Notes under the pieces: generated by a model
What the model was told of the DNA's origin: nothing
Seen by the model: the letters and a program-made list of their open reading frames with translations, nothing else
Database searches by the model: none
Virus record (IMG/VR): IMGVR_UViG_3300013947_000027
Span: 1-64,000 of that record
DNA length: 64,000 nucleotides
Strand: one strand, 5' to 3'
From: a virus
Taxonomy: Duplodnaviria > Caudoviricetes
In this document: positions 7,662 through 52,521 of the stretch, piece by piece
How positions within the stretch are numbered: position 1 is the stretch's first letter
Layout of the letters: each line of letters begins with the position of its first letter
Made by a program: the position numbers and the translations under genes

Positions 7662-7754
7662 ATAAAAGAAGAAATGTTAGTCTTCTAGATATACATCTAG
7701 ATCTCCTTGCTAGTTTCCTAGGAACGGAATCGAACCGTTTCTTCATTTCTTCTC
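7662..7754 (-). ncRNA. Structured small RNA A (four-way junction with a tRNA T-arm)
   Basis: 10-bp closing stem AGAAGAAATG/CATTTCTTCT; AACGG-TTCGATT-CCGTT; CTAG-GAAA-CTAG; TCTAGAT-GTAT-ATCTAGA; U-tract; starts at motif 7775. Confidence 0.7.
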
Positions 7755-7838
7755 ATAATAGGCAATGTAATTTTCGCGAACCTAAAATATCAAAAAGAAA
7801 GAGGCTCTGAAAACAGAACCTCTAACTTCGTCGAGTTG

Positions 7839-8027
7839 TTAAAGATCGAACATGCTCTTTGTGTCTTGGACACCTGCTACATAAGCCTTATCTTTAAGAA
7901 TTATACATCCAATACTAGCTACAGCACCGATGATAGCACCGGCGGTAACAGTCAGGATATCTTTCTTTGAGATATACTTGCTGCCAAACTGGGTCCCGTC
8001 CTTGAACACAATTACAGATTTCTTCAT
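7839..8027 (-). CDS. Small membrane protein (cassette payload)
   Basis: One TM segment; motif 8062; GGAGG RBS. Confidence 0.7.
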   Translation of the reverse strand: MKKSVIVFKDGTQFGSKYISKKDILTVTAGAIIGAVASIGCIILKDKAYVAGVQDTKSMFDL

Positions 8028-8104
8028 AATTCAACACCTCCATAAAAGCAAGTGTTATTATCGCGAACTAATGGCATCAAAAAGAAGCGCCCTTGTCATA
8101 GGAC

Positions 8105-8338
8105 TCAACTCAAATCATCAAGTAAGTCATCATCAAACTCCGCCTTAACACACGGCGAATCAAAAACCTTCACCCAAAATCTCTTCCAATATGCAACCAT
8201 AACCTCTTCAACAGCAATCTTACGTGACAATTTTTTAACCTGTGTCACATCACATAAATATCTCGCAGCCTCGTTGCGATCCATGCCATAACTCATAAGT
8301 TTCTTAATTGTAGTCTTACGTGTCATTTTTATTCTCAA
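8105..8338 (-). CDS. Hypothetical protein
   Basis: ORF followed by a terminator-like hairpin. Confidence 0.55.
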   Translation of the reverse strand: MRIKMTRKTTIKKLMSYGMDRNEAARYLCDVTQVKKLSRKIAVEEVMVAYWKRFWVKVFDSPCVKAEFDDDLLDDLS

Positions 8339-8416
8339 AACCCCTTTCAGAATATAGTTTCGTCTTGACCAACGGCTTTTCGTCTATGATCAAATCTAAA
8401 AAGAGAAGAGTCCTTG

Positions 8417-8659
8417 TTAGGACCCCTCTCCAACATCAAAGTTTATGAAATCTACAACATCTTCAAATTTTACCATATCAGGATTCCAATCTTTGACCCA
8501 CTGCGGCTTATCTGCATTTAGTAATTCATCAGCATACAGATAACCCTCAGTTTTAAATTTACTAACTAGATCATCTCTTCCAAAAAATTCCAAAAACGCA
8601 ATAAGCTTCTCAGTAGTATCAAGCTGATAAATCCATTTTGGTAATACATGATAATGCAT
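8417..8659 (-). CDS. Hypothetical protein (cassette payload)
   Basis: Motif 8696; start moved to the ATG after AAGGAG. Confidence 0.65.
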   Translation of the reverse strand: MHYHVLPKWIYQLDTTEKLIAFLEFFGRDDLVSKFKTEGYLYADELLNADKPQWVKDWNPDMVKFEDVVDFINFDVGEGS

Positions 8660-8741
8660 AAATATCATCTCCTTCATATAAGAGAATGTTTTCTACGCGA
8701 AAATTAGGAACCCCTGTTATAGGGCTCCTAAGTCTTGAGGG

Positions 8742-8933
8742 TCAACATACCTCACAAGTTTCAAAAATATAATCTGCCTCGTAATCGCTTACTCCGAAGA
8801 TTTGTCCGCTGGCGAGATCCTTAAAGTAGTTAAGCTTCCCACGCCAAGCCTTACAAGCTCCATCGTCGCCAACTCTGTCAATAAGATCCCCAATACAGTC
8901 CATTTCTCCGAGATATACTAATACGTCGCGCAT
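8742..8933 (-). CDS. Hypothetical protein (cassette payload)
   Basis: Variant motif 8994; AAGGAG then MRDVLV. Confidence 0.65.
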   Translation of the reverse strand: MRDVLVYLGEMDCIGDLIDRVGDDGACKAWRGKLNYFKDLASGQIFGVSDYEADYIFETCEVC

Positions 8934-9079
8934 AATAAATACTCCTTCCAAAATATAAAGGTTTAATCTCCTCATAATAGAGCGTGTAAAATTAGCGAGT
9001 TTCAATGCATTCAACGATTTCTTATTGTGTTCAAAACCAAAAAAAAGAAGACCCAGTGTTTCCACCAGGTCTATCTTCG

Positions 9080-9253
9080 TCAGCGGATCTTCTTAATCGT
9101 GATTTCTTCCGTAGTTTCTGTGGGGAAGGTAAACGGTTCCTCATCATCTCTGTGAATCTTAATCCGGCTTCTTCCAACCTTCATACGAGTCACATCGGTG
9201 AAAATATCAACATTTCCTTCTTCGTCAACAATTCGTACTTCAAAGTCATTCAT
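9080..9253 (-). CDS. Hypothetical protein (cassette payload)
   Basis: Motif 9287; GGAGG then MNDFEV. Confidence 0.65.
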   Translation of the reverse strand: MNDFEVRIVDEEGNVDIFTDVTRMKVGRSRIKIHRDDEEPFTFPTETTEEITIKKIR

Positions 9254-9349
9254 AATAATCGCCTCCATAATATAGAATGTTTTTCTCGCGAGTGCATCAT
9301 AAGTGTAACGTAACAATACATATCCAAAACAAAGAGGAAAGGGTATGTT

Positions 9350-9688
9350 TCAACCCTTCCTTTTGTTGCCCACAAATGCCATACATCCGATAGTACGGCC
9401 ATTAATTTTAACCTGCTGAGCGGGCGCAACAAGGTCAGTACGATCTTTGCAACTTTCCAGAACAACATTTGATACAATATACAGAAACCCCTCTCTCGGA
9501 GCAGGCAGATCGACAATCTCGTCGTTCTTTCTACCCAGAAGAGGTATTCCCTGAATATAACCAATGTTTTCATAGTTATTACAAACTCGCGCAACCTTGC
9601 CACTAGCTCTGTAAGTCTTAACAATGCGTCCGTAGCTATCGCAAATATCTACATCATGCGGTGTCAAATTTACAAGATATGTATTCAT
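9350..9688 (-). CDS. Conserved phage protein with an N-terminal NLTPH motif (cassette payload)
   Basis: MNTYLVNLTPH...LPAPREG..YIVS..DRTDLVAP; motif 9752. Confidence 0.7.
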   Translation of the reverse strand: MNTYLVNLTPHDVDICDSYGRIVKTYRASGKVARVCNNYENIGYIQGIPLLGRKNDEIVDLPAPREGFLYIVSNVVLESCKDRTDLVAPAQQVKINGRTIGCMAFVGNKRKG

Positions 9689-9811
9689 AATTCTTTCCTC
9701 TTTTAAATAAAATATTGAGAGTATTCCTCTCATAAGAGGAAGTGTTTTTATCGCGAGATCTAATCTGACCAAAAAGAAAGACCCAGTGTTTCCACCAGGT
9801 CTCCTTTCGGA

Positions 9812-10000
9812 TTAATCCCATCTCATAGATTCCTTGTAATCTCGATACGAATCGAAAATCCTGTCCAAGTTCGTGCGAGGCATGTAGTCGCAGTACTTCC
9901 GAGCATAATACTCGTCATCACTGACAAGCTTCTCTACTCGATAGTAGTGCTTCGTACCGTCTTCATCAACCCAAAACTCTTCTGTAGTAATCCGTTTCAT
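9812..10000 (-). CDS. Hypothetical protein (cassette payload)
   Basis: Motif 10059, GGAGG RBS, terminator at 9771-9802. Confidence 0.65.
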   Translation of the reverse strand: MKRITTEEFWVDEDGTKHYYRVEKLVSDDEYYARKYCDYMPRTNLDRIFDSYRDYKESMRWD

Positions 10001-10126
10001 ATGTATTGTACCTCCATAAAATAATTGGGTATTATTCCATAAAAGGAAGTGTTTTTATCGCGAGTCTTATTGATCAAAAACAAAAAGGAGTGCCAATGCC
10101 ACGTATTAAAAGACTAGGAGACCCTG

Positions 10127-10324
10127 TTACAGATCTCCGATAGTCTTAGTAAGTTTTCTCCTTAAATCCGATAAAGCAATACGCTTCTCCAAATACTCCT
10201 CAGATTTCTCGAGCATCTGTTCATCATACTTGCTTAACGCAACAGTCTGTCTGAACATCCGATCATAGAAATCAATCTCGTCGTCGAGTACCTTTAAAGC
10301 TTTCTTGTATTTCTTATCAAACAT
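10127..10324 (-). CDS. Hypothetical helical protein (cassette payload)
   Basis: Motif 10368, AAAGGAG RBS. Confidence 0.65.
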   Translation of the reverse strand: MFDKKYKKALKVLDDEIDFYDRMFRQTVALSKYDEQMLEKSEEYLEKRIALSDLRRKLTKTIGDL

Positions 10325-10380
10325 AAGTCAACACTCCTTTCTTCTCATATAAGAGAGTGTTTTTTCTCGCGAACCAAAAA

Positions 10381-10467
10381 TAAAAGAGAACGGCTAGATT
10401 AGGCTCACTAGCAATCTATATTTCTATAGATCAGTTTAATTCCTTCGGGCTTAGCCCTCGCTCTCTC
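10381..10467 (-). ncRNA. Structured small RNA B (closing stem plus three hairpins)
   Basis: AGAGAGCG/CGTTCTCT closing stem; GGGC-TAA-GCCC; ATCTATA-GAAA-TATAGAT; GCTAG-N10-CTAGC; U-tract; motif 10488. Confidence 0.7.
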
Positions 10468-10513
10468 ATAATAGAGAGTGTTATTTTCGCGAATAAAAAA
10501 GAAGAGCCAGCGT

Positions 10514-10771
10514 TTAAGTCAGCCCTTCTTTAATAAGGAACAAGTAACCTCCATAGTGATTAAAGTTAAGCCTCAGAAGTCCCAATACGCTAGGCATTGG
10601 CTCGAACAAACAATATAAATATACTTTACCGTCTTCCGAACGAATTAAGTATGGCGGAAATAAATCCGCTAAAGCCTCCAATTCTCTCTGAAATAAAGTT
10701 CCGTATTCGCCATTCATCATAAGTTCATCCCCAATAAGATAACGCACCTTGCACATATCAATAGTTAACAT
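10514..10771 (-). CDS. Hypothetical protein (cassette payload)
   Basis: Motif 10818, RBS. Confidence 0.6.
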   Translation of the reverse strand: MLTIDMCKVRYLIGDELMMNGEYGTLFQRELEALADLFPPYLIRSEDGKVYLYCLFEPMPSVLGLLRLNFNHYGGYLFLIKEGLT

Positions 10772-10862
10772 TTAATAACAACTCCTTTCTGTTCCTCATA
10801 TAAGAGAGTGTTCTTCACGCGAAAATTAGGAGACCCTGTTTAGAGCCTCCTAAAATAAAAAC

Positions 10863-11165
10863 TTAATTCATAACGTCATACTCTCTGATGGAAAAGTAGG
10901 GCAAACCATTGTTTCCTCTATATGGGACCGAATATCTCCTGGATTCAATCTTATCCATCTCTTCTTCGATTTCGCTAGTAATACAGTCCGGATCGCTAGT
11001 GATCTTAACCAGCTCGTTCCAACGTTCTTCGTCATGGCGAATCTGCTTACGAGCATTAGCGATGCACTGTTCGGCTGCTTCTCTCGAACTGCAAATGGCC
11101 CAGATATCCTGGCAATTGTCCTCATAGCTTTCACCATTGCTTGCCCAAACAACCCAAACTTTCAT
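10863..11165 (-). CDS. Hypothetical protein (cassette payload)
   Basis: Motif 11218, AGGAGG RBS. Confidence 0.65.
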   Translation of the reverse strand: MKVWVVWASNGESYEDNCQDIWAICSSREAAEQCIANARKQIRHDEERWNELVKITSDPDCITSEIEEEMDKIESRRYSVPYRGNNGLPYFSIREYDVMN

Positions 11166-11266
11166 AGTATAAACCTCCTATAAAATATAAGTTTTCCATA
11201 AAAGGCACTGTTTTCTACGCGAAAAAAGAAGAGGCCCTGTTTCCAGAGCCCCTAACTTTTAACCTA

Positions 11267-11620
11267 TTATGATTCCGACTTTACTTCATGGCCGAATGCA
11301 ATGATGTTTTCGACACAAAGAATGCCTCCGTCGTCACACTTAATGCACGGATCAATCAGTTTTCCGTCCTTGTCAAACATAGCCCAGATTGCCTTAGGAC
11401 TGGTTTCAGTGTAATATGGGGACTGCCTGCCAATACGATCTGCCGTTTCCAAAAAATCCAAAAAATTCGGATCTAATGAATCGGTAAAATCGGTCAGCTT
11501 AGGCTTACTCCATTTTACGCCAATAACCGCCAAAGCAGCTGCGCCAGCGATTCCAATCGTTCCGCCAATGATCGCGCCTTTGTGTTCCTTCACAAACTTC
11601 TTAATCTTCTCCATACTCAT
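11267..11620 (-). CDS. Membrane-anchored protein (cassette payload)
   Basis: KIKKFVKEHK followed by a TM helix; motif 11685. Confidence 0.65.
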   Translation of the reverse strand: MSMEKIKKFVKEHKGAIIGGTIGIAGAAALAVIGVKWSKPKLTDFTDSLDPNFLDFLETADRIGRQSPYYTETSPKAIWAMFDKDGKLIDPCIKCDDGGILCVENIIAFGHEVKSES

Positions 11621-11694
11621 GTTTCATGTCTCCAAAAATATAAAGTAGTAACCTTGTAGGTTCCATAATAGGCACTGTTTTTACCGCGAACCAC

Positions 11695-11976: not shown

Positions 11977-11992
11977 AAAATATCAATCCCCT

Positions 11993-12340: not shown

Positions 12341-12342
12341 AT

Positions 12343-20928: not shown

Positions 20929-20965
20929 AAAAAAGAGGAGACCTAGTTTTTCACTAAGTCTCCTC
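20929..20965 (-). terminator. Hairpin plus U-tract directly after motif 20986 (empty cassette or attenuator)
   Basis: GAGGAGACTTAG-TGAAAAA-CTAGGTCTCCTC-TTTTTT. Confidence 0.7.
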
Positions 20966-20994
20966 ATAAAAGGGGCTGTTTTTCACGCGAATTA

Positions 20995-26448: not shown

Positions 26449-26655
26449 TCATTCCTCTGTCTCCTCATAAAGAATCACAATAGAATGGTCGCCATACCGT
26501 ACCCGGTCATATTTAAAATCAATAATGATCGCACGAGGGTGGTCTTCCATCCACTCACCAAAGAGCTGATCCGCACGAGTCCCTCCAGCATTGCCAAAGA
26601 AAATCTTAGCCTTAGGCTTGATATGATTGTCCCGCTGCATCTCATAGAAAGTCAT
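26449..26655 (-). CDS. Hypothetical protein
   Basis: AAAGGAG RBS. Confidence 0.55.
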   Translation of the reverse strand: MTFYEMQRDNHIKPKAKIFFGNAGGTRADQLFGEWMEDHPRAIIIDFKYDRVRYGDHSIVILYEETEE

Positions 26656-26732
26656 AGTTAAATCTCCTTTTCAAAAATAATTATTAAAAATAAAAGAGGA
26701 CCCGATGTTTCAACCGAGTCCTCTTAAAGATA

Positions 26733-26888
26733 AAAAATATACGCTGTGCACCAATAGCCGAATCAACCTCCTATTTCACCAGTGTCTATCCACCACAAAC
26801 TCTGTGCACTTTACGCCGAATCAACCTCCTATTTCACCAGTGTCTATCCACAACAAACGTAACCTTTTAGAATAGTGTATACTCTTTC
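26733..26888 (-). ncRNA. Small RNA C containing two tandem 58-nt repeats
   Basis: Repeats at 26744-26801 and 26802-26859; closing stem GAGTATACACT/AGCGTATATTT; motif 26909 upstream; strong terminator at 26692-26725. Confidence 0.7.
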
Positions 26889-26914
26889 ATAATAGGGTCT
26901 GTATTTTTCGCGAA

Positions 26915-31232: not shown

Positions 31233-31272
31233 AAAAATAAAAAGGAAGAGAGACACATAGTATCTCCCCTCC
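31233..31272 (-). terminator. Hairpin plus U-tract directly after motif 31293 (empty cassette or attenuator)
   Basis: GGAGGGGAGATAC-TAT-GTGTCTCTCTTCC-TTTTT. Confidence 0.7.
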
Positions 31273-31445
31273 ATAATATAGCGTGTAAATTTCGCGAATT
31301 ATGCTTCAGATTCTTTTCCCTTTACCGCCAAAGTAATTCTTGCAATGCCACCTGCAATAACTCCGATAACAATTGCCGTTCTGATCGGATGCTCGAGCAG
31401 AGTGTTAATTACTTCTTTCATTTTAGGTCCTCCTTGAAATATAAA

Positions 31446-35427: not shown

Positions 35428-35553
35428 TGGTGTCAGAGGCAGGACTCGAACCTGCAATATCTTCTATGGCGCCCTCTTCGTTTGAAGTTCGGACCGAAAC
35501 CACGTACGAAGCACCTATTGTCTTAGCGTCTCTACCAATTCGACTACTCTGAC
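35428..35553 (-). ncRNA. 126-nt tRNA-like RNA (Leu-like acceptor, D and T arms, CCA) with the anticodon/variable region replaced by about 70 nt
   Basis: GTCAGAG/CTCTGAC-ACCA; GTC-GAATTGGTAGA-GAC; GCAGG-TTCGAGT-CCTGC. Confidence 0.8.
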
Positions 35554-35572
35554 GGAAATATAAAAATAGATT

Positions 35573-35833
35573 TCAGAGAAGCTTTTGGATTTTGTCGAGA
35601 ATCATTTTTCTACAATTCTCATCCGACAGCTTATCTTCAATAAGTTCTACAATGTACTGTTCGACAATATGAGAATTAATATTAATATCCTTGATCGGAA
35701 CGACCTACATAAGCCTACAATCTTGATCGACGAATGTTCTCGTGAAAATAAAGTGAATAGAATCGTCGAACTTCCAATAACCGAAATGACACCGGATGTC
35801 ACGTTCTTTGCAGAGTTCAAAAATCTTTTCCAT
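35573..35833 (-). pseudogene. 86-codon ORF interrupted by an in-frame TAG at codon 43
   Basis: AAAGGAG RBS; MEKIFELC..CRLM*VVPIKD..KIQKLL; TAG at 35705-35707. Confidence 0.55.
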
Positions 35834-35935
35834 AAAAATCTCCTTTCAATTCCATATAAAATTCGCCATCCTGAAGCTAAGGGAATGTAAATAACGCTAC
35901 CTATACGAACTCACTATGATGGCAAGTTCTAATAA

Positions 35936-36012
35936 TGGTGCCGGATAAGGAATTCGAATCCTTACTGTACGGAGCTTAAATCCGTTGCCTCTTCCGATTG
36001 GGCTAATCCGGC
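35936..36012 (-). tRNA. tRNA-Leu(TAA) with a short variable region
   Basis: GCCGGAT/ATCCGGC-ACCA; anticodon arm ACGGA-TTTAAGC-TCCGT; T-arm AAGGA-TTCGAAT-TCCTT. Confidence 0.85.
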
Positions 36013-36058
36013 AAATATAAAAGCCGCTATTTATATACATAGGGCGGCTAGTCCTATA

Positions 36059-36134
36059 TGGCAGAGATGGCAGGATTTGAACCTACGAATACTAGAGTCA
36101 AAGTCTAGTGCCTTAACCACTTGGCAACATCTCT
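36059..36134 (-). tRNA. tRNA-Gln(TTG)
   Basis: AGAGATG/CATCTCT-GCCA; CTAGA-CTTTGAC-TCTAG. Confidence 0.9.
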
Positions 36135-36137
36135 ATC

Positions 36138-36214
36138 TGGTGGGCCCTCTGGTACTCGAAACCAGAACCGTCCGGTTATGAGCCGGGTGCTCTAACCAAT
36201 TGAGCTAAGGGCCC
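36138..36214 (-). tRNA. tRNA with CAT anticodon (Ile2-like; elongator Met not excluded)
   Basis: GGGCCCT/AGGGCCC-ACCA; CCGG-CTCATAA-CCGG; the 5' half resembles bacterial lysidine tRNA-Ile2. Confidence 0.85.
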
Positions 36215-36220
36215 AAATAT

Positions 36221-36305
36221 AAAAAGAAGAGTATGGGTTGCGGCCCAACGGTGCCGAACTCAACCGATTCGATTTTACTCGAATTCCGTATATCATACTC
36301 TTCTC
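36221..36305 (-). ncRNA. Structured small RNA D at the head of the tRNA cluster
   Basis: 11-bp closing stem AGAAGAGTATG/CATACTCTTCT; ATTCGA-GTAAAA-TCGAAT; CGGT-N10-ACCG; U-tract; motif 36326. Confidence 0.7.
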
Positions 36306-36331
36306 ATAATAGGGACTGTGAATTTCGCGAA

Positions 36332-36374
36332 TGGTCCGAGTGACAGGTCTTGAACCAATCTGAGCTACACCCGG
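36332..36374 (-). pseudogene. Internally deleted tRNA (Pro-like), D-loop fused to T-loop
   Basis: CCGGGTG-TAGCTCAGATTGG|TTCAAGACCTGT-CACTCGG-ACCA (43 nt). Confidence 0.7.
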
Positions 36375-43717: not shown

Positions 43718-44656
43718 TCAAATGTAATCGAGGATATTGCCGATGCAGTTGAAGTCAAGAATGATACTCTTCTCACGACCATTGACAAAGTCACATGCCT
43801 TTTCGTTATTCACGTCGAAGATACCGAAGTCGACAAAGTTATCACCGATGGAGTTATCATCAGTGTAAACCCAGCCTGCGATCTGACCATATGCGGTTCT
43901 AGGTGCACCAACCATGTCATAGACTTCATTCAGAGTAAGGATACCGTTCATTTTGAGCTTGTCATTAGCCCAGTTCTGCTGCTGAATCAGGAAGACCTTG
44001 TTCAGTTCAGCGTTTCTAGTCCAACCAGTGTTGCCTTCACAGAACACAATAGAATACATGCTATGTGCTGTATTAGGATCGACTACCTCGACAGTCTTCT
44101 TAACAGTGGTTTCCTTGCCATCTTCGTCAACAACAGTTTCTTCGACTTCCTTAGCCTTAATGCCGAAACGAAGCTCGCGATCAAGATCTTTACCGAATCT
44201 ATCAACTAGGCGACCGCGGTACTCCTTGAAGCTAGTAGCTACATTCGTGAGTGCAGCAGCCAGTGCAATGTTACGCTTACGTAGGATATGGTTGGAGCCA
44301 AGCATACAGCCAATAGAAGCAACACCAAGAGCAACAGACGGACCATAAAGCTTAACGAACTTCAGACCAGTCTGCACATAGGTAATCGTCAGATCCTTCT
44401 TAGCAATTTCCTCAGTATATTCTTCTCCGTCAGAAGTATGGAGACCCTTGCCAACGCTCTCATGGATCTTGTCGATAGTATCCTTGGCTTCATCAACAAT
44501 ATCGTTTACCTTAGTAGTAGCCTTACATGCCATAACTGCACTCGTCACAATACCGACGACGCCAGTAACAGCCAGAATTTCAGGGCTATGCTTCTTGAAC
44601 TTGAAGCCAGCCTTATGGAAAGATCTACTTACCTTGCTAATAAGTTCAGTTTTCAT
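43718..44656 (-). CDS. DUF6353-like membrane-anchored protein, paralogue 1
   Basis: HSPEIL..G.VG..AT.K; LAAA..YR; LNEVY..GW..LDF. Confidence 0.7.
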   Translation of the reverse strand: MKTELISKVSRSFHKAGFKFKKHSPEILAVTGVVGIVTSAVMACKATTKVNDIVDEAKDTIDKIHESVGKGLHTSDGEEYTEEIAKKDLTITYVQTGLKFVKLYGPSVALGVASIGCMLGSNHILRKRNIALAAALTNVATSFKEYRGRLVDRFGKDLDRELRFGIKAKEVEETVVDEDGKETTVKKTVEVVDPNTAHSMYSIVFCEGNTGWTRNAELNKVFLIQQQNWANDKLKMNGILTLNEVYDMVGAPRTAYGQIAGWVYTDDNSIGDNFVDFGIFDVNNEKACDFVNGREKSIILDFNCIGNILDYI

Positions 44657-44691
44657 ATATTTTAATTCTCCTTCTTAATAGATTTAGTTAA

Positions 44692-45336
44692 TCAAAGCGG
44701 CAATGCTCTAGGCATTTCAATCTTGTAGCCATCTCGAGTTCTAACAACTCTTGCATTGCGAATGTTCGTCCAACCATACTTGTTATCTGTGTAGTCACCG
44801 GTGATGCCTACCAGATCGTACAGGTCAGCAACTCGAACTGCGTCATACTGCTCAATCATTTCGTCCATACGAGATAGGACAGACTCTGCTTCTCCACGAG
44901 ATTCAAGAACAATATCATCATAGCTGTAACCAGTTGTAGTTCTGGTATTGCCATAGGACCGTTCGTCTCGTCTACTGATGCTGTTGTAGTCTCTGTAAGA
45001 GACCTTATCAGAAGTGGGGCGCTTACTGCCAGAACCGCCACGACCTCCAAACAGAGTCATATCGAGAGCGCCCACAACAAGGTCGTACAGAGCCTTCTTG
45101 ATGGATGGGACGATCACATCAAATACTACATAATTCTTGACATTAGCTGCGTCTTCCGTGATGAAAACGTCTGTCAGCTTACGTGTATTATTTTTCTTAG
45201 TCTTTACTTTTCCGTGAATGATCTTCTCCGCTCGCTTTCCCTCAGCCAGAGACTGCTTATCGTCACGCTTATTTCGGCTTCCATGGGAGTTGTCAGGCAA
45301 GTTATCATACAGCTTGGTAACATCGGGTTCACCCAT
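44692..45336 (-). CDS. Conserved phage protein
   Basis: C-terminal VADLYDLVG..DNKYGW domain. Confidence 0.7.
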   Translation of the reverse strand: MGEPDVTKLYDNLPDNSHGSRNKRDDKQSLAEGKRAEKIIHGKVKTKKNNTRKLTDVFITEDAANVKNYVVFDVIVPSIKKALYDLVVGALDMTLFGGRGGSGSKRPTSDKVSYRDYNSISRRDERSYGNTRTTTGYSYDDIVLESRGEAESVLSRMDEMIEQYDAVRVADLYDLVGITGDYTDNKYGWTNIRNARVVRTRDGYKIEMPRALPL

Positions 45337-45341
45337 TAAAT

Positions 45342-45539
45342 TTATCCTCCTTCAACAATTTTCAACTTTCCAGGAATAGTAATCTTTGATCTAGGCATTC
45401 TTCCAGTTTCCATTTTGAATTGATATGCCAGATTAGAGCGAGCTTTCTTTTCGGTCGGTGCACGAGTAGAAGCCGACCAACGATCTGCAATGATCCTTTC
45501 AAACTCTAAAACAGGACCATTGTAGTAATATAGGTTCAT
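45342..45539 (-). CDS. Hypothetical protein
   Basis: AGGAG RBS. Confidence 0.6.
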   Translation of the reverse strand: MNLYYYNGPVLEFERIIADRWSASTRAPTEKKARSNLAYQFKMETGRMPRSKITIPGKLKIVEGG

Positions 45540-45666
45540 ATGTCGCTTTCTCCTACAACAAAAAAAGAAAAAGAGGAGAACACCCTGTTACGGATGCTCT
45601 CCACTTGCCGAATTCCAAATAACTTACTGCTCAAAGTAGGTTATCCTTGGAACGCTCTCACGGCTA

Positions 45667-45909
45667 TTACTCGTCAACTACCACGTAGTCTTCTTCCGCC
45701 TCGGCCTTCTGTGCTTCCTTCTTGGCCTTGTACTTGCTGACAAGCTTCTTGCCCAGCTTGATCAGACCGCCAGTAGCGATCGTCAGGCCGGCACCAATCA
45801 GCATTGCCACGCCAGTACTCATGCCAGAGTTCTGCACCTCTTCGACCTCGTCGTTGTTCTCGACTTCCTCGATAGCAGTCTCGTCATAGTTCATGATCTC
45901 GTTTTCCAT
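45667..45909 (-). CDS. Single-TM protein (cassette payload)
   Basis: Motif 45975, RBS, terminator at about 45560-45602. Confidence 0.7.
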   Translation of the reverse strand: MENEIMNYDETAIEEVENNDEVEEVQNSGMSTGVAMLIGAGLTIATGGLIKLGKKLVSKYKAKKEAQKAEAEEDYVVVDE

Positions 45910-45980
45910 AGTTTTTAACTCCTTTTAGAAATAATAATTATTGGTATTTCTGCCATAATAGGGCCTGTAAATTTCGCGAA

Positions 45981-46769
45981 TTATCTACAGCTATTAAATC
46001 CGCGTTTCGGAGCAACCGCATAGTCAATGACAATACAAGGCACACCGTCCGTATCAAGTTGCGCACTAAAATCAAGCTCGATCAATCCACGAGCAACATT
46101 CCAACCAAGATCATCACCAATGCTCACACCATCTAGATCAAGAGCATAGTAGAATTCGTTAAGAGAAATATAATCCTCACCGTTGACCATTTGTCGATTA
46201 AGCTCATTAACATTTCTCTTAATTGTCTCGATGTCAGATACGAATCTTCGCTTAGTGATAGTGTCAAAGCATCGAGTCTTACCGTTCCCACTCACAATAA
46301 TTGTGGAAGGATTTGCAGGTTCTTTCTCGATACGATCCTTAGCAAGCTTCTCACGGATTGTCTGCTCTTTCTTCTCGCCAACAGTCTCAATAACCTTCTG
46401 CTTATACTCTGCAAGCGCAGTTGTGGACAGGTTGTATGCTGTAGCAAGAGCAGCATTGCGCTTAGAATGCACCGAGCTCGCACCAATCAGGCATGCAACA
46501 GAGGTGACACCCGTAATTGCTGCAGGAATGTAGGGTTTCCATGCTGCCTTAACCGTTTCAAGCTTAGTGAGATGATCGTTATGTTCGTTTTCAGCTTTCT
46601 TATCTTCAGCCTCAGCAATAAGATCCAAAGCCTTCGGTGTAGCAGAAACTGCCAGGATTGTTGTGGTGATCATGCCAGCGATACCGAGTCCAGTTAAAAT
46701 CTCTGGACTATGGTTAGATAAAACTGTTTTAACGCTTTTAAACAGTGCTGCCATGTTGGGTTTATTCAT
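45981..46769 (-). CDS. DUF6353-like membrane-anchored protein, paralogue 2
   Basis: HSPEILTGLG..ATPKA..YIP..LNEFY..GW. Confidence 0.7.
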   Translation of the reverse strand: MNKPNMAALFKSVKTVLSNHSPEILTGLGIAGMITTTILAVSATPKALDLIAEAEDKKAENEHNDHLTKLETVKAAWKPYIPAAITGVTSVACLIGASSVHSKRNAALATAYNLSTTALAEYKQKVIETVGEKKEQTIREKLAKDRIEKEPANPSTIIVSGNGKTRCFDTITKRRFVSDIETIKRNVNELNRQMVNGEDYISLNEFYYALDLDGVSIGDDLGWNVARGLIELDFSAQLDTDGVPCIVIDYAVAPKRGFNSCR

Positions 46770-46807
46770 ATACTTTCCTCCTTAAAATTAAAAGTAAAAG
46801 AGCCCGA

Positions 46808-46969
46808 TTAGGACCCTTTTACCTGTTTAGTAGTGACTTCCTTCACTTCTTTAGCGACAGCTTCTTTCATCTCATCGCTAGATATCTTGCTATTGATGAG
46901 GGTAGCAACCCCCGCCAACACAAGTGCTCCAAGCTTAAGACCTGTCTTGATAGCCTTCGTTTTATCCAT
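46808..46969 (-). CDS. 53-aa micropeptide (cassette payload)
   Basis: MDKTKAIKTGLKLGALVLAGVATLINSK...; motif 47010, AAAGGAG RBS. Confidence 0.7.
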   Translation of the reverse strand: MDKTKAIKTGLKLGALVLAGVATLINSKISSDEMKEAVAKEVKEVTTKQVKGS

Positions 46970-47015
46970 GATAGAACACACTCCTTTCCATAATAGTGGC
47001 TGTGAATCTCGCGAA

Positions 47016-47774
47016 CTAGTATTCGAGGTAGCCTATGACTGGTTCCATTGGAAAATGAATAATCGTGCATTCTAATCCTTGACTTTCTTCAGATTCCTCG
47101 TCAATGACTATCTCCTCGTAGTCAAATTCGATCCATGGATGCCAGTACATTTCCTCGATCTGACCGCAAGCCCATCCTACATTTTCATACTCTGGCTTCT
47201 GCTCCAAACCAAGAAGTTCGTAATATTCGTTGAGACAAACAGCGCCATTAACGTACATAGCTCTATTAGCCTCATACTGAGCCCACATGACAGTCTCTTT
47301 GGTTGATTCGAAGTATCTTCCTGAATAGAAATCGTAGAATAGTTCTTTGTTATTGTCAGATAAATCTACGTCACCCGCATACTTGTCTTTAGCGATCTCG
47401 CCACGAATGTTCTTGCCAGCTTCTTCTCCATACAATTCGTCCGTTTTCTTCTTATACTCCTTATAAGAATTGTCAAGTAACGCATACGCACTCATAAGAG
47501 ACGCCTGCTGACGTTTACTAATAACGTTAGATCCGAATATGCACACAATTGTAGCAGCTCCAGTAATTATAGATGGGATGTAAACTGGGCCGGCTATTTT
47601 GATTTTTTCCCATTTGGTTAATTCTTCTCCTTTCTTCTCTTTTGCATCTTCAAGTAACGATAATGCTTTCGGTGTTTCTTTGGCTACCATAACTGCTGTA
47701 GTTACTACTCCAGTTGCACCTATACAAGTTAATATTGTAGATGCGTTACGTTTAATGAATTGTTGTAAATCCAT
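47016..47774 (-). CDS. DUF6353-like membrane-anchored protein, paralogue 3
   Basis: NASTILT..G..TPKA..YIP..LNEYY..GW; start revised to MDLQQF. Confidence 0.7.
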   Translation of the reverse strand: MDLQQFIKRNASTILTCIGATGVVTTAVMVAKETPKALSLLEDAKEKKGEELTKWEKIKIAGPVYIPSIITGAATIVCIFGSNVISKRQQASLMSAYALLDNSYKEYKKKTDELYGEEAGKNIRGEIAKDKYAGDVDLSDNNKELFYDFYSGRYFESTKETVMWAQYEANRAMYVNGAVCLNEYYELLGLEQKPEYENVGWACGQIEEMYWHPWIEFDYEEIVIDEESEESQGLECTIIHFPMEPVIGYLEY

Positions 47775-47812
47775 TTCTTTCCACTCCTCGGGTTTAGGGT
47801 ATGTGTCAAAAA

Positions 47813-48006
47813 TAAAAGAGAGAATCAATCATTCCACTCGAAGGACGCCGATATTTCCCTCAGGCTCATGGTCAATCTTTCGATTGAGCTCATCTTTTCA
47901 GATCTAGCCTCGTTCATAATCTTTCGATTATTATCTCCTTCCCGATGCGGTACCAATGATTGTTGGCCCTCCAACTTCACTGCCCTTTCGAGTGTTATAT
48001 TCTCTC
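47813..48006 (-). ncRNA. About 190-nt highly structured RNA E (three GAAA tetraloops, possible pseudoknot)
   Basis: GAGAGAAT/ATTCTCTC; CACTCGA/TCGAGTG; AGGGC/GTCCT; ATAATC-GAAA-GATTAT; ATCT-GAAA-AGAT; TCAATC-GAAA-GATTGA; AGGCT/AGCCT; motif 48027. Confidence 0.8.
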
Positions 48007-48068
48007 ATATTAGGGCCTGTAAATTTCGCGAACCGTTGATTAGGCGAAAATAAAAAAGAAGGAGCTCA

Positions 48069-48257: not shown

Positions 48258-48343
48258 TTTGAATTCCTCCTTTAATATTCTTCCATAATAGGAGCTGTAA
48301 ATCTCGCGAAAAAAATAAAGAGAAGGAGTCCCTGTTATAGGAC

Positions 48344-48517: not shown

Positions 48518-48563
48518 TATTAATCAACTCCTTCCATAATAGGAGCTGTTAATGTCGCGAATT

Positions 48564-48923
48564 TTATATAAGCCGTCTATCAAAAGATGTTTCCCAGCGT
48601 TCTTTTGGCAATGGTTTCATCTTAAGACCCCACATAATTTGCCTAATAGAGACCGTAGGATATAAGTTGTCAATACATTCTCCAGCACGTTCGTTAAAAA
48701 ACTCCTCAAACCTGTTATGTAAATACAAGTCGTCAACTAACCACGGATCTATGTCCGTCCAATACGTCGATTTAGTCTCTTCGTCATATCTTTGCTGGAT
48801 TACTGCAAGACCTTTCTCGTTTATTTTGAATAACGTGCATGTATTATACACAGAATGATCACAAATATATGTGTCGCCATATATAGTTGAATAGATTTCA
48901 GGTTTCTTGTAGTGGTATCTCAC
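48564..48923 (-). CDS. Hypothetical protein
   Basis: AAAGGAG RBS, GTG start. Confidence 0.6.
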   Translation of the reverse strand: MRYHYKKPEIYSTIYGDTYICDHSVYNTCTLFKINEKGLAVIQQRYDEETKSTYWTDIDPWLVDDLYLHNRFEEFFNERAGECIDNLYPTVSIRQIMWGLKMKPLPKERWETSFDRRLI

Positions 48924-48972
48924 ACTAGAGGGCTCCTTTCTGGAAAAATAGAAGGGGCCGAAGCCCCCGCTA

Positions 48973-49038
48973 TTACTTAGAACTCTTGCCGATCAAAAAT
49001 ACTCCGACCAACACTAATGTGATTCCAATCCACAGCAT
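48973..49038 (-). CDS. 21-aa single-TM micropeptide (cassette payload)
   Basis: AAGGAGG RBS; MLWIGITLVLVGVFLIGKSSK; motif 49092; GGGGC-TTCG-GCCCC terminator. Confidence 0.7.
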   Translation of the reverse strand: MLWIGITLVLVGVFLIGKSSK

Positions 49039-49107
49039 TATATCATCCTCCTTGATTCTACATTCCGTTCCATAATAGGGCCTGTGAATCTCGCGAAATG
49101 CAAAATT

Positions 49108-49250
49108 AAAAGAAAGAGAGGCGGCTCACCTGTTAACCATTAAGTCACTCCGTACCTCGATAGCCGTCAGCTAAACCTTCAAGGGTGACACCTTATTTCA
49201 ACGTCGCCGTTTGCACATTTATAACGGTTGTTTCCGTAACGTCTCTTTCT
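49108..49250 (-). ncRNA. About 140-nt small RNA F
   Basis: 9-bp closing stem AGAAAGAGA/TCTCTTTCT plus U-tract; ACGG-AAACAA-CCGT; GTCAC/GTGAC; variant motif 49271; no RBS-led ORF. Confidence 0.6.
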
Positions 49251-49335
49251 ATAATAGGGGCTGCTAATATCGTGAATTGAATGCTCGGAGCAAAAAAGAA
49301 GAGGCCATGTTTCCACAGCCTCTGTCTTTCGTACG

Positions 49336-49695
49336 TCAGTTCCTACTTCTAAAGTTGAATAACTTATCCATGAACTTCCGTCCCACAGTCGTGGTAACCG
49401 TGTTCTCATCCTCGAAGTACAAACTTGCCTTCACGCCCCACAAGGTTACGCCGAGCGGCAGAACAATCGCACCAACGTCGATAAGATTCCTAATCAACCG
49501 AGCCTTGCGTTCCTCTTTCATCTGTTTCTCGTTCTGAGATTCAGACGATTCGAGTTTCTCAATCTCGATTGCTCGATCCATCAACTTAGTGACACTGTTC
49601 ACCACAGCTTCGTATTCCTTACTGGTAGGATCCAGCTCGTTTGCAGCATCAAGTCTTTCCTCGATTTCCATCTGCAGCTTCGTAGTCATACTCAT
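49336..49695 (-). CDS. Coiled-coil plus TM protein (cassette payload)
   Basis: Motif 49756, RBS. Confidence 0.7.
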   Translation of the reverse strand: MSMTTKLQMEIEERLDAANELDPTSKEYEAVVNSVTKLMDRAIEIEKLESSESQNEKQMKEERKARLIRNLIDVGAIVLPLGVTLWGVKASLYFEDENTVTTTVGRKFMDKLFNFRSRN

Positions 49696-49748
49696 ATCGA
49701 TTCACTCCTTTAATTTCGTCGAACTTATACGTCCCATAATAGAGCCTG

Positions 49749-50006
49749 TTAATCGCGCGAAAGATAGTTCTTATCCACAACTTTGAGCATAACAACATTC
49801 TTCTTAGAAATAGAATCAATTGTAGCTCCTTGAAGTTCCAAGAACGGTCTCGGCGGCTCGTCGGGTTCTGAGCGATCAATTCTGAGATAGCCAACTGATT
49901 GTTCCTCGACTGTTTTCCTCATTCGTCCCATGCTAATAAAGATACCGACGAATACTCCGATGATTGCTCCGACCAGCAGAGCGATTCCAATTGCCAAATA
50001 CTCCAT
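49749..50006 (-). CDS. Membrane-anchored small protein
   Basis: N-terminal TM; G.LRID.S. Confidence 0.65.
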   Translation of the reverse strand: MEYLAIGIALLVGAIIGVFVGIFISMGRMRKTVEEQSVGYLRIDRSEPDEPPRPFLELQGATIDSISKKNVVMLKVVDKNYLSRD

Positions 50007-50224
50007 ACTTTCTCCTTTCGAAAATTGAAATGTTTTTCAAAAATTCCTTGGCGGGAAATTTTCGCCTTATAAAAGTAGCATTGTTTTCCGTAACCTACAT
50101 TCGGATTTTCTAAGCTAGAATAAAAGCGTCTAATCTAGGTTAGACGAGCAAAGAGAAGAAAAAACTAAAAGACCTTGATGTAATCTCAATCTTTTAGTCT
50201 ATTTTGTGTTTGCGTGCATTTGCA

Positions 50225-50344
50225 TTAGCCGATATGTACGTCATTAGTTTCATCCTCCATTTTCTTCAGCTCTTCCTTTTTGGTGAGCTTTTCAACGAAA
50301 GATAAACCAACATATATCGTAGCTAAAAAAGCAATATACATCAT
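50225..50344 (-). CDS. 39-aa micropeptide (cassette payload)
   Basis: MMYIAFLATIYVGLSFVEK...; motif 50388. Confidence 0.6.
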   Translation of the reverse strand: MMYIAFLATIYVGLSFVEKLTKKEELKKMEDETNDVHIG

Positions 50345-50466
50345 AGTAAACACACTCCTTTCTTCTCATAATATGGAGTGTTAATTTCGCGAATTGTAAC
50401 TAAAAAAGAAAAGGGAATCTGTTAAGACTCCCTAATCTTTGGTTAGTGGTTGAATTTATGCTAATT

Positions 50467-50547
50467 TTAGAAAATGAATTCGATCGACTGGACACAGCCG
50501 TATTCGTCAACAGTGGTAATCTGTTCCGGATAGCTAATGCTAGTCAT
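50467..50547 (-). CDS. 26-aa micropeptide (cassette payload)
   Basis: GGAGGAG RBS; MTSISYPEQITTVDEYGCVQSIEFIF; motif 50622; terminator at about 50402-50432. Confidence 0.6.
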   Translation of the reverse strand: MTSISYPEQITTVDEYGCVQSIEFIF

Positions 50548-50633
50548 AGTTAACTCCTCCATATGTAAAATTTAGTTTTTAAATTCCAACCATTTCTTCC
50601 CATAATATGGAGTGTTAATTTCGCGAATTCAGC

Positions 50634-50852
50634 TTAATTAATTCTAGGTTTCTTTCTGTCGCAATAGAATACAGATTCTATTTTAGTCTTTCCTACAAAA
50701 TATCTATAATCGAAATCGTACTTAGCAGGATTGAAAGTCCATATTCTTTCACGGCTACCGTCCTCATATATTACGACAATCTCTGCTGTGTCGAATCGTT
50801 TATTATTTATAAAACATTTTGAAACAATGTCATATAATTTAGGATCCATCAA
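50634..50852 (-). CDS. Hypothetical protein
   Basis: Coupled to the upstream gene. Confidence 0.55.
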   Translation of the reverse strand: MMDPKLYDIVSKCFINNKRFDTAEIVVIYEDGSRERIWTFNPAKYDFDYRYFVGKTKIESVFYCDRKKPRIN

Positions 50853-51283
50853 ATATTCCGCTCCCTTGTTTCATTTAGCAGCCAAAAGAACCTTCTGTAT
50901 CTGTCATAGTACATGTCTTTTCCGCAAGGTATTCCCATTGCAGTTCTTAAATAAATGTAAGACCGTTCCTCTGTCACTCCTTTTACAATATAGTCGTGCA
51001 AGTATGGGTCTGCCTCAAGCGCAGTCTTTTCAATTAACTTAATGCGATCTGAATAAAATACTTTCATCATAGCTCTTTGAGCGATTGGATCACTATCGTT
51101 AGGGAAATTATTTGTAGGCGTTGCGTCAACCATTGACAGTGGTGGATTCTCATTGGAAAGATCCGAGTAAATCTTTTTCCATTCGGGGTATTGTAAGCAG
51201 AAGTGCTTTAATTCGTAATATCGGTGCTTGCTGATCCAGTATTTGTTCTTTGGCGAAATTTCAGCTCTTATCACAGTTGCCAT
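50849..51283 (-). CDS. ArpU/RinA-like transcriptional regulator
   Basis: ISKHRYYELKHFCLQY..C-terminal HTH-like YYDRYRRFFWLL. Confidence 0.6.
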   Translation of the reverse strand: MATVIRAEISPKNKYWISKHRYYELKHFCLQYPEWKKIYSDLSNENPPLSMVDATPTNNFPNDSDPIAQRAMMKVFYSDRIKLIEKTALEADPYLHDYIVKGVTEERSYIYLRTAMGIPCGKDMYYDRYRRFFWLLNETRERNI

Positions 51284-51440
51284 TTTGACTTTTCTCCTTC
51301 GTTTTATTCTTTCTACATTTCTCTGCTTTCTTTAAGAAAATAATAGTGGCTTCTTCAATCTTTGTTCGATCAACTTCGCCACGTATTCGAACAATCGCAT
51401 TCTCATATCTGTATTCTTCTATAAATGTCACCCTCTAAAG

Positions 51441-51792
51441 TTGCATTCAACGCAATGGCTAAAATAAGAAAATCTCAAGTGCTTCTTCATCTGTAAGTTC
51501 AAGTACGTCTTTCATCTGAATCGCTTCTCCGATTGTTATCTTTAGTGGAGCTCGGAGCTTACGATATAACGTTGGACCAGTCATCCCAATAATTTCAGCT
51601 AACTGCTCCACATTCATTTCTCGTTCAACGATTTTTGCTTTAAGTTTGTTCATGTTCATTTATGTCACCTCTTTCCGTTGCGTTCCGTGCAACACATACA
51701 AGATAGCATCGTTTTACTTTTTATGTCAATATTTTTTTGCGTAAAATGCAACGTGTTTTATTCTCAGTTTTAAATAATTTGCATACTTGCAA
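51441..51792. promoter_or_regulatory. Immunity switch: TTGC-N7-GCAA operators and divergent sigmaA-type promoters
   Basis: Operators at 51441, 51678, 51737 (N7) and 51779 (N6); minus-strand TTGACA-N18-TATCTT (51729-51700); plus-strand TGnTATACT near 51799-51807. Confidence 0.7.
51459..51659 (-). CDS. Cro-like HTH repressor
   Basis: KLKAKIVE..VEQLAEIIGM..TLYRKL; divergent from cI. Confidence 0.85.
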   Translation of the reverse strand: MNMNKLKAKIVEREMNVEQLAEIIGMTGPTLYRKLRAPLKITIGEAIQMKDVLELTDEEALEIFLF

Positions 51793-51827
51793 TTCTTAGT
51801 GTTATACTATCAACTGAAAGAAAGGAA

Positions 51828-52394
51828 GTGCATGATATGAACATAGGAAATCGAATAAAAGAAAGAAGAAAAGAACTAAATATGTCAGTTGAGGAATTAG
51901 CTAAAAGACTGAATAAAAATCGAACAACCGTTTATCGCTATGAGAAAGGAGATATAGAAAACCTTCCAATCGACATTCTTGATCCACTAGCAAAAGCATT
52001 AGAGACAACTCCGGCGTACTTAATGGGTTGGGATAATAAGCCAAATAAAGACACTGCTACAATTGGCGAGTTGCTTAAGATGATGAGAACTAATCGAAAC
52101 ATGACTATCGAGGAATATTCACGAGAGATAGGTATATCTGCTGAGGATTTACGTATGTATGAATCCGGAGAAAAATACATACCTCTTTCTGTAATCCACA
52201 CAATTGCGGAATACTATCGTCTTTCACTGGAGAGTGTCAGAGTAGGTAACCCTGAGGTTAATAAAGAAGGAAATATTCGCCTCGAACGCTTTAAGACTTG
52301 GGCTGAAAATTTTGGTGACCTGGAACTTACTGATGAGGAGCATGACAAGATTGTTGAGTACACGAAATTCCTAATCTACATAAGAGAAAAATAA
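51828..52394 (+). CDS. CI-like immunity repressor with two XRE HTH domains
   Basis: IGNRIKERRKEL.MS.EELA..YRYEKG; second HTH IGELLK..YESG. Confidence 0.88.
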   Translation: MHDMNIGNRIKERRKELNMSVEELAKRLNKNRTTVYRYEKGDIENLPIDILDPLAKALETTPAYLMGWDNKPNKDTATIGELLKMMRTNRNMTIEEYSREIGISAEDLRMYESGEKYIPLSVIHTIAEYYRLSLESVRVGNPEVNKEGNIRLERFKTWAENFGDLELTDEEHDKIVEYTKFLIYIREK

Positions 52395-52521
52395 AAGAGA
52401 ATGTGTAGTCTTGTACAGTTCATTTCCTGTCCGAGAGTCGCTCGGTCTTATTTCTTATATGACGGCATCTCAGCCGACGGGACTTTCACCCGTAACTCAT
52501 TACTGCTACTTCATTTTCTCC
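52393..52521 (-). ncRNA. Structured small RNA G, antisense in the cI-integrase intergenic region
   Basis: Imperfect closing stem; ACGGG-TGAAAGT-CCCGT; CGGC-TGAGAT-GCCG; CCGAG-N5-CTCGG; ACAG-N8-CTGT; U-tract; motif 52542. Confidence 0.7.

Follow-up and report, generated by a model that had tools for sequence, protein, structure and literature searches.

The stretch of DNA analysed here, to which we refer as the window, is the first 64 kb (64,000 nucleotides, nt) of the IMG/VR virus record IMGVR_UViG_3300013947_000027, a sequence of 102,032 bp that CheckV rates as complete. It belongs to a temperate Oengusvirus-like siphovirus of gut Clostridia (Oscillospiraceae/Lachnospiraceae), whose nearest named relative is the Faecalibacterium phage FP_oengus; metagenome-assembled genomes (MAGs) of Oscillospiraceae and Lachnospiraceae hold prophage copies of one of the elements described below. 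Nearly all genes of the window lie on the minus strand, and among them are seven elements, R1 to R7, in which a 27-nt promoter-like motif leads not into a protein gene but into a stretch of 84-193 nt with no credible conserved open reading frame (ORF). We regard these seven elements, with high confidence, as genuine structured non-coding RNA (ncRNA) genes, and they belong to no described RNA family. An earlier, sequence-only reading of this DNA had presented them as a library of unrelated RNAs sharing one expression chassis; the observation is confirmed and extended here, and the chassis is a reading that comparison with related phages supports.

The motif is a minus-strand element of the form TTCGCG-N6-ACA-N5-TATTATG, after which comes a run of purines (GAGAAGA or GGAAGG, for example). 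All seven copies in the sequence-only reading (at 7775, 10488, 26909, 36326, 48027, 49271 and 52542) were found again on that strand, and the 5-nt offset of these positions from the first bases of the motifs, which are the higher coordinates in Table 1, is a difference in where the motif start is set. A 15-nt core of the motif gives 20 matches against 0.9 expected by chance; the strict 27-nt pattern has 28 copies, all on the minus strand, with none for a reversed control; and a relaxed scan finds about 33 copies, from 4321 to 55127 and all on one strand, the siphovirus structural module (from ~55.9 kb on) having none. Most copies are followed by a ribosome-binding site (RBS) and a start codon within 10-40 nt, then by a hairpin-U terminator and then by the next motif, which is to say that most of them head single-gene cassettes. 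A sigma-70 promoter was considered and rejected, as 14 nt between TTCGCG and TATTAT is the wrong spacing and the region shows no excess of sigma-70-like sites (24 against 29 expected). Terminator-like hairpin-U sites number 18, against 7.7 expected.

Table 1. Coordinates of the RNA elements, their motifs, motif copies that lead into a bare hairpin ('empty' chassis) and selected genes of the window. MFE, minimum free energy; z, fold z-score; HTH, helix-turn-helix; RdRP, RNA-dependent RNA polymerase.
Feature	Position	Strand	Remarks
Motif before R1	7754-7780	-	
R1, 91 nt	7664-7754	-	11-bp closing stem around three hairpins; MFE -25.3, z -3.1
Motif before R2	10467-10493	-	
R2, 86 nt	10382-10467	-	Closing stem around three hairpins; z -3.7
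Motif before R3	26888-26914	-	
R3	26680-26888	-	Two ~58-nt tandem units, weak closing stem and U run, separate terminator
Motif before R4	36305-36331	-	Abuts 43-nt tRNA remnant, 36332-36374
R4, 84 nt	36222-36305	-	12-bp closing stem; z -5.1
Motif before R5	48006-48032	-	
R5, 193 nt	47814-48006	-	Multi-domain, four GAAA-type loops; z -4.1
Motif before R6	49250-49276	-	Variant TTCACG...TATTATA
R6, 143 nt	49108-49250	-	9-bp closing stem; z -1.9
Motif before R7	52521-52547	-	Overlaps integrase RBS region of the other strand
R7, ~131 nt	52391-52521	-	Between cI-like repressor and serine integrase, on the opposite strand
'Empty' chassis	20931-20991	-	13-bp hairpin from +1, U tract, RBS of next gene; z -6.9
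'Empty' chassis	31240-31298	-	Before helicase-region genes; z -5.4
'Empty' chassis	4250-4321	-	Before operon (endonuclease, exonuclease, polymerase) ending in polymerase gene
HTH-flanked YonO/RdRP-like single-chain RNA polymerase, 1011 aa	303-3338	-	phrog_4291 ('RNA-dependent RNA polymerase'), E=0
cI-like repressor	51828-52394	+	Two HTH_3 domains
Large serine recombinase (integrase)	52611-54191	+	

Behind the motif, the seven RNAs follow a common plan. The purine-rich 5' end (the first 8-12 nt) pairs with a pyrimidine-rich 3' end just before a U tract; the resulting closing stem, P1, measures 8-12 bp and -11 to -17 kcal/mol and abuts at least four U in six of the seven RNAs, in the manner of a stem and U-tract terminator whose 'loop' is a folded insert, or cargo, of 60-170 nt. 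Such a stem, as the sequence-only reading had proposed it for every element, appears in the MFE folds of R1, R2, R4, R5 and R6 (8-12 bp); in R7 it is bulged and borne out by covariation, and in the window copy of R3 the claim does not hold, the stem being degenerate and a separate hairpin terminator present, whereas R3 homologues close cleanly with 14 bp. Fold z-scores of the RNAs range from -1.9 to -5.1. The interiors have nothing longer than 8-mers in common, again as described, and the particulars given for them are also present, namely GAAA tetraloops in R1 and R5, a canonical T-arm in R1 and a tandem repeat in R3. The pairing of the ends consists of generic purine/pyrimidine complementarity plus a specific extension: own ends average -12.8 kcal/mol against -8.0 kcal/mol with the ends of other cargos, where the own-end mean is inflated because the set was chosen by a cut-off on the same energy and where the value reached by foreign ends indicates that part of the complementarity is a generic match of purine starts with pyrimidine ends. 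For the RNAs of the window, the own 3' end ranks 0-7 of 68 for pairing with its own 5' end.

Comparison with homologues supports six of the seven RNAs, strongly for R7, R3 and R5, moderately for R2 and thinly for R4 and R6; for R1 the evidence is its architecture. R7 has 15 distinct homologues in IMG/VR, all directly behind the motif, and a fold in which P1 is followed by a P2 junction with two 7-nt-loop hairpins and then by hairpins P3 and P4. Its alignment holds 33 predicted pairs, 18 of them compensatory, and 98.6% of the alignment cells pair against 36-51% for slid partners, with none of 500 column shuffles as high. The R3 family comprises eight members, each with two units of ~58-61 nt that evolve in concert; 12 of its 21 pairs are compensatory (98.2% paired, 23-43% in slid controls, 0 of 500 shuffles as high), and we take it as one fold, not two independent units, because pairing joins the palindromic tails of the two units. 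The R5 family has six members, among them a short and a long variant; they share a conserved core around which hairpins have been exchanged, have disappeared or have grown, and compensatory changes affect 12 of the 30 pairs (91.5% paired, 35-45% when slid, 0 of 500 shuffles). The strand of R7 is fixed by a pair that is G-U in 8 of the 15 sequences, and the G-U pairs of R7, R3 and R5 alike fit the promoter strand only.

The remaining families are smaller. R2 has two homologues (L268/G003, 93%; L098/G008, 74%), and across the three sequences there are three compensatory pairs, one inserted GAAA hairpin and an invariant 10-nt loop, UGAGCCUAAU; a pattern scan of IMG/VR for R2 returned mostly chance matches and these two real homologues only. 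R4 has one (L073/G004, 83%), in which both the closing stem and a GGUUG/CAACC helix show compensatory changes. R6 has two (L275/G041, 87%; L276/G092, 90%, with the first hairpin cleanly deleted), one compensatory pair (ACGG/CCGU to AUGG/CCAU) and no match in GenBank phages. The longest ORFs of R4 and R5 lie in other frames in the homologues, and that of R5 is frameshifted. R1 folds into a T-arm-like hairpin (ACGG-UUCGAUU-CCGU), a GAAA-capped CUAG stem and a 7-bp hairpin. Searches against Rfam 15, at the gathering score and with E up to 5, matched none of the seven RNAs; the only Rfam matches in the window are four tRNA hits (35431-36214), none of which overlaps them. The notion of a 6S-like or riboswitch identity was dropped, as neither Rfam nor genomic context supports it.

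Beyond their folds, the cargos are exchanged. At the site before a ribbon-helix-helix (RHH) gene (7429-7629), the phage of the window (G000) holds R1, whose U tract is followed by the RBS of that gene, and two relatives (G003, G009) each hold another RNA of ~195 nt, the two mutually unrelated; all three have in common the upstream terminator, a 'gatattttagg' spacer, the motif, the U tract and a 'GAAAGGA' RBS. Likewise, the DUF6353 gene (47016-47828) that follows R5 here is preceded by R7 in G007 and in an Oscillospiraceae MAG. The positions of R5 and R6 differ in close relatives, or the RNAs are absent; R6, for instance, is an insertion relative to G006 and G009. R7 occurs in cassette arrays, before DUF6353 genes and before unrelated downstream genes. 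The sampled relatives hold 114 distinct cargos (closed, non-coding and at least 55 nt long) in ~71 BLAST families. The cassette region is clearly shuffled by recombination, and this comparison of syntenic sites bears out the idea of a standard scaffold with interchangeable contents. The site upstream of the first DUF6353 gene, a recurrent RNA-cassette position that holds R5 here and R7 in other phages, belongs to a tandem of three DUF6353 paralogues (43718-47828, minus strand), an arrangement also found in FP_oengus.

What reads the motif is most likely the phage's own polymerase (Table 1), which phrog_4291 and tblastn place in the HTH-flanked RdRP/YonO-like type and whose C-terminus is a sigma-70 region-4-like HTH. 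Putative polymerases of this type have been noted as characteristic of a phage supercluster whose members infect actinobacteria, lactococci and Faecalibacterium (bioRxiv 10.1101/842583); the paper describing it mentions no promoters, terminators or ncRNAs. As would suit the promoter of a single-chain polymerase, the motif is long, contiguous, repeated, strand-specific and found together with the polymerase gene. A motif scan of IMG/VR returned at least 118 stretches, and 20 related contigs taken whole carry 8-37 motif copies each, almost always on one strand. Among the sampled records with the promoter, every one of the 16 with a completeness of at least 90% has the polymerase gene, and only four records, with an estimated completeness of 52-84%, lack it. 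FP_oengus carries, alongside a diverged polymerase, an equivalent module with at least 14 copies of a variant, GACGCG-N6-ACA-N5-CTTTATG. Covariation in P1 starts 2-4 nt past the motif, and transcription would start at the last motif base. In FP_oengus (L278, NC_047916), the variant promoters lie at 2284-8270, 22538 and 27682, and two gaps of the GenBank annotation hold an unannotated RNA cassette of ~120 nt (2515-2632) and a tRNA-like cassette (2935-3010) identified by reading the sequence.

Three further motif copies (20991, 31298 and 4321), which the sequence-only reading had not listed, lead into nothing more than a bare hairpin with a U tract and then into a gene. FP_oengus has a promoter and a hairpin-U leader likewise before its polymerase operon (L278:27682-27760), an arrangement that may represent autoregulatory attenuation. 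The promoter at 4321 contains a perfect TATAAT, with no -35 hexamer at usable spacing. The genes or tRNAs that follow R1, R3, R4, R5 and the three empty hairpins have no promoter of their own, so transcription must read through, and termination at the closing stem would be partial. Some R7 homologues have no U tract and keep the closing stem, using a separate terminator instead. Given this and the read-through, P1 appears to be foremost a structural element that sequesters the ends and only sometimes a terminator, and its covariation is consistent with this.

These same leaders invite a cis-acting explanation, in which a hairpin and U tract from +1 attenuate the next gene as a leader or conditional terminator, relief coming from an antiterminator of the phage, from a ligand or from the type of polymerase, as in the lambda PR'-tR' 6S unit or in riboswitches with a P1 terminator. 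It would account for R1, R3, R4 and R5 running into genes or tRNAs without a promoter, for the three bare leaders before genes that need expression, among them the polymerase operon with its counterpart in FP_oengus, and for the recurrence of RNA cassettes upstream of DUF6353 genes. However, R2 and R6 in the window are directly followed by another promoter (at 10373 and 49097, respectively), as are homologues of R2 and R5; R7 here faces the repressor gene in convergent orientation and elsewhere precedes unrelated genes; and the gene downstream of R3 differs in every family member. A gene-specific sensor is also hard to reconcile with three unrelated folds occupying one site before the same RHH gene. 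We therefore consider a cis role for the set unlikely, and a riboswitch or cis-leader class was rejected on the same grounds, since the downstream context of R2, R3, R5 and R7 is not conserved and unrelated folds precede the same gene.

A second alternative concerns tRNAs, and holds that the RNAs derive from tRNA genes by divergence, truncation or permutation and are retained as substrates of, or competitors for, enzymes that process, modify or target tRNAs. Of the relatives' 114 cargos, 25 are tRNA-like (listed examples being L097, L105, L107, L120, L014, L037, L047, L054, L076, L077 and L080); the ten loci with a match score 44-60 bits on the Rfam tRNA model, and L107 and L076 rest on ARAGORN. 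The listed cargos encode no CCA and have anticodon loops of 3-6 nt, GNRA tetraloops or loops without U33, and with such aberrant loops they are unlikely to decode. Within the window, R4 adjoins tRNA genes, its U tract continuing directly into tRNA-Met (36214), which is followed by tRNA-Gln and tRNA-Leu, and in the other genome that has R4 (G004) it is followed by another promoter with a tRNA-like RNA behind it. The T-arm of R1 sits at the same unusual 5' position as in a tRNA-like RNA of G004, a 77-nt cargo (L073:11526-11600) whose sequence can be read as a tRNA in circular permutation, the acceptor stem being capped; its order is a closing stem corresponding to the anticodon stem, variable loop, T-arm, capped acceptor-like stem and D-arm. 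Against a tRNA origin of the seven, neither Rfam nor ARAGORN calls any of them a tRNA, R1 having a T-arm only; ARAGORN found none in the extracted R1, R2, R4 and R6 and, over the whole window, only the three canonical tRNAs at 35936-36214. In addition, R2, R3, R5, R6 and R7 have neither a D-arm nor a T-arm, and the covarying folds are not cloverleaves. For the seven RNAs we accordingly hold a tRNA derivation to be very unlikely.

Two unusual tRNA relatives lie near R4 and speak for the tRNA reading. Between a terminator and the R4 promoter there is a 43-nt tRNA remnant (36332-36374, minus strand) with a 7-bp acceptor stem and an encoded ACCA, in which the 5' half of the D-arm is joined to the 3' half of the T-loop and the anticodon arm is missing. 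Next to the tRNAs, a 123-nt tRNA-like element (35431-35553, minus strand; 41.8 bits on the Rfam tRNA model, not called by ARAGORN) has normal acceptor, D and T arms, with an insert of ~50 nt replacing the anticodon region. Each tRNA of the cluster is preceded by the spacer UUUAUAUUU.

For R7 only, its position suggests a cis-antisense regulator of the lysogeny module, complementary to the spacer between the cI-like and integrase genes and transcribed from the phage-type promoter in the direction opposite to a cI-int transcript. It lies on the opposite strand between the two, with a promoter that extends into the integrase RBS region and a U tract adjoining the stop codon of the repressor gene; the arrangement recurs in L234 and L236. 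Most R7 homologues are found elsewhere, though, inside cassette arrays or before DUF6353 genes, and the fold is conserved beyond sequence with strand-specific G-U pairs, which points to a function of R7 as an RNA. An antisense role therefore seems to us a poor candidate, of low probability.

Our proposed explanation combines these elements. The phage polymerase would start at the last base of the 27-nt promoter of each small-RNA gene, and in the transcript the purine-rich first 8-12 nt and the pyrimidine-rich last nucleotides would form the P1 helix, enclosing the cargo fold and followed by the U tract. Promoter, P1 and U tract would make up a recombination-friendly frame, which also serves single small protein genes in the region and within which RNA cargos would be exchanged between related phages. 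By sequestering the two ends, P1 would guard against the 5' and 3' exonucleases found in Firmicutes and would, together with the U tract, cause partial termination, yielding a stable short RNA and some read-through. The RNAs themselves would bind proteins and serve as trans-acting accessory effectors in host takeover or counter-defence. The effector role is suggested by the stand-alone units with a promoter directly behind (R2 and R6, and homologues of R2 and R5), by the location of the RNAs in a shuffled array of small accessory genes and by the anticodon-defective tRNA mimics that relatives carry in the same frame; taken separately, we hold it tentatively, with doubt slightly ahead of belief. 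For the explanation as a whole, separate small-RNA genes in an exchangeable frame together with a trans effector role, our compromise assessment is one of slight preference. What stands of the earlier interpretation is that these are non-coding, structured and mutually unrelated RNAs behind one type of promoter; its suggestion of CsrA sponging fell away, as each RNA has 1-5 GGA, about the chance number for its length and purine content, and the numerous repeated GGA loops by which such sponges are defined were not seen. Two outcomes that would have spoken against the earlier reading, a lack of covariation among homologues and Rfam matches for all seven RNAs, did not occur.

A number of points weigh against this explanation. 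As regards the RNAs, R1 has no homologue among 130 related virus records or GenBank phages and holds a 36-codon ORF (7636-7746) that reads through its U tract, and the variation in R4 and R6 is too small for a real covariation test. As regards the promoter, the co-occurrence of motif and polymerase lacks a negative control because the relatives were sampled through the motif itself or the RNAs behind it; the explanation does not account for how the first polymerase is made, its gene sitting at the distal end of the stretch that carries the promoters; and it is possible that a phage factor redirecting the host polymerase, and not the phage polymerase, reads the motif. As regards function, R1, R3, R4, R5 and the empty hairpins can be explained as economically by a cis leader role as by action in trans, and in the phage genome the reverse complements of the conserved loops of R2, R3, R5 and R7 have only near-chance hits with one mismatch. 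Finally, the stretch from 45.5 to 55.2 kb is covered to 68-99% by DNA in four runs of one isolate organism, none of the public RNA runs listed holds the phage, and start site, 3' end and stability are inferred.

Taken to the extreme, some of these points would make the elements no functional RNAs at all, only spacer left behind when cassettes recombine or, in the case of R1, a small protein gene. R1 has an ORF and stands without homologues, R4 and R6 have few and near-identical homologues, and the region is shuffled by recombination. On the other hand, the compensatory changes in R7, R3, R5 and R2 amount to selection on the fold, and the closing stem hides the start codon of the R1 ORF, which has no suitably spaced RBS and crosses a U tract, so translation of this ORF is unlikely. 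We thus give the absence of RNA function hardly any credence.

A bolder version of the effector idea, which we find rather doubtful, sees in Oengusvirus-like phages a pan-genomic, shuffled RNA library, with at least 70 families in the small sample covered, made by the phage polymerase from the common frame. Its members, some of them permuted tRNA-like RNAs or tRNA mimics that lack a usable anticodon, would be decoys or inhibitors of host enzymes, namely tRNA- or RNA-directed defence and housekeeping enzymes. RNAs would here play the part taken by small anti-defence proteins in other phages.

Small RNAs encoded by phages are a known class, usually with one or two to a genome, and the small stable ones include the T4 species 1 and 2 RNAs (RNA C and RNA D), the lambda 6S RNA (PR'-tR') and oop, and the phi29 pRNA. 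Like these, the RNAs of the window are short phage ncRNA transcripts with a dedicated promoter and a nearby terminator, both predicted in our case; R4 adjoins tRNA genes as the T4 RNAs lie in a tRNA cluster, and the empty copies of the chassis resemble lambda 6S as a promoter-proximal, terminated leader. Unlike them, up to seven unrelated RNAs per genome stand behind one non-sigma-70 promoter, in a frame of paired ends with cargo exchanged among relatives, and there is no sequence or Rfam similarity. The units are also reminiscent of T7-type transcription, with a contiguous promoter of ~27 bp that ends at the presumed start, a GA-rich start, strand specificity, confinement to one module and co-occurrence with a phage-encoded single-chain polymerase; the predicted polymerase here is, by contrast, a two-barrel RdRP/YonO-like enzyme with an HTH at both ends and no member of the T7 family.

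Two further parallels concern the architecture of the cargo. In type III antitoxins (ToxI, CptI, TenpI), as in R3, a promoter-driven tandem-repeat RNA is followed by a terminator and a gene. However, R3 has two ~58-nt units only, bound by long-range pairs, no ToxN/AbiQ/CptN-type endoribonuclease gene follows it and Rfam gives no ToxI match. The hairpin terminator of R3 ends near 26680. A ToxI-like R3 was rejected: the 68-aa ORF downstream (26449-26655) has no Pfam or PADLOC match, and downstream genes vary in every member of the family. The synthetic 'tRNA scaffold' stabilises recombinant RNAs, and tRNAs and this scaffold resemble the present frame in that a helix of paired 5' and 3' ends encloses the inner fold; R1 has a T-arm and relatives carry tRNA-like cargo in the frame. 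Unlike tRNAs, the seven RNAs have no CCA end and run into a U tract. Metagenome-derived structured RNAs in Rfam are similarly conserved, covarying and found in gut phage sequence, with the difference that the RNAs described here match no family and, unlike most of those motifs, have a putative promoter and 3' end assigned to them.

A further system for comparison is the YonO polymerase of SPbeta. Its one reported start site lies upstream of an unannotated ncRNA (PMC5467207); the YonO promoter sequence is undefined there, and so no comparison of promoters is possible. In the literature on YonO promoters, phage tRNA-like decoys, actinophage RdRP promoters and FP_oengus, of which our coverage is incomplete, we found no description of this promoter or these RNAs.

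The findings have several implications. One phage holds seven small RNAs and its relatives hold dozens more families, which offers new RNA classes fit for structural and functional work, with a predicted start and end and, in several cases, good covariation. The frame also supplies the first sequence-level candidate promoter for HTH-flanked RdRP/YonO-like polymerases. Since the system also occurs in a cultured pair, FP_oengus and F. prausnitzii, direct tests are feasible. If the RNAs are indeed effectors of counter-defence or host takeover, RNA would join proteins as a major currency of accessory functions in gut phages, and the frame could represent a natural, portable design for stable RNA expression in Firmicutes.

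The genome also has genes for DNA polymerase/primase, helicase and NrdD in addition to those in Table 1. The best sigma-70-like sites of the region (51700-51729, minus strand, and ~51770-51805, plus strand) are divergently oriented in the interval from the cI-like gene to an ORF of 144 aa on the minus strand (50849-51283), and probably form a lysis/lysogeny switch read by the host; the polymerase gene lies 48 kb downstream of this candidate switch. Another conserved non-coding stretch, at ~49900-50150 on the minus strand, has neither promoter motif nor ORF, follows the hairpin CGTCTAACCTAGATTAGACG and recurs in the Oscillospiraceae contig L273. Finally, a free-standing HNH/NUMOD4 homing-endonuclease-like gene (4358-4840, minus strand) lies within the cassette array.

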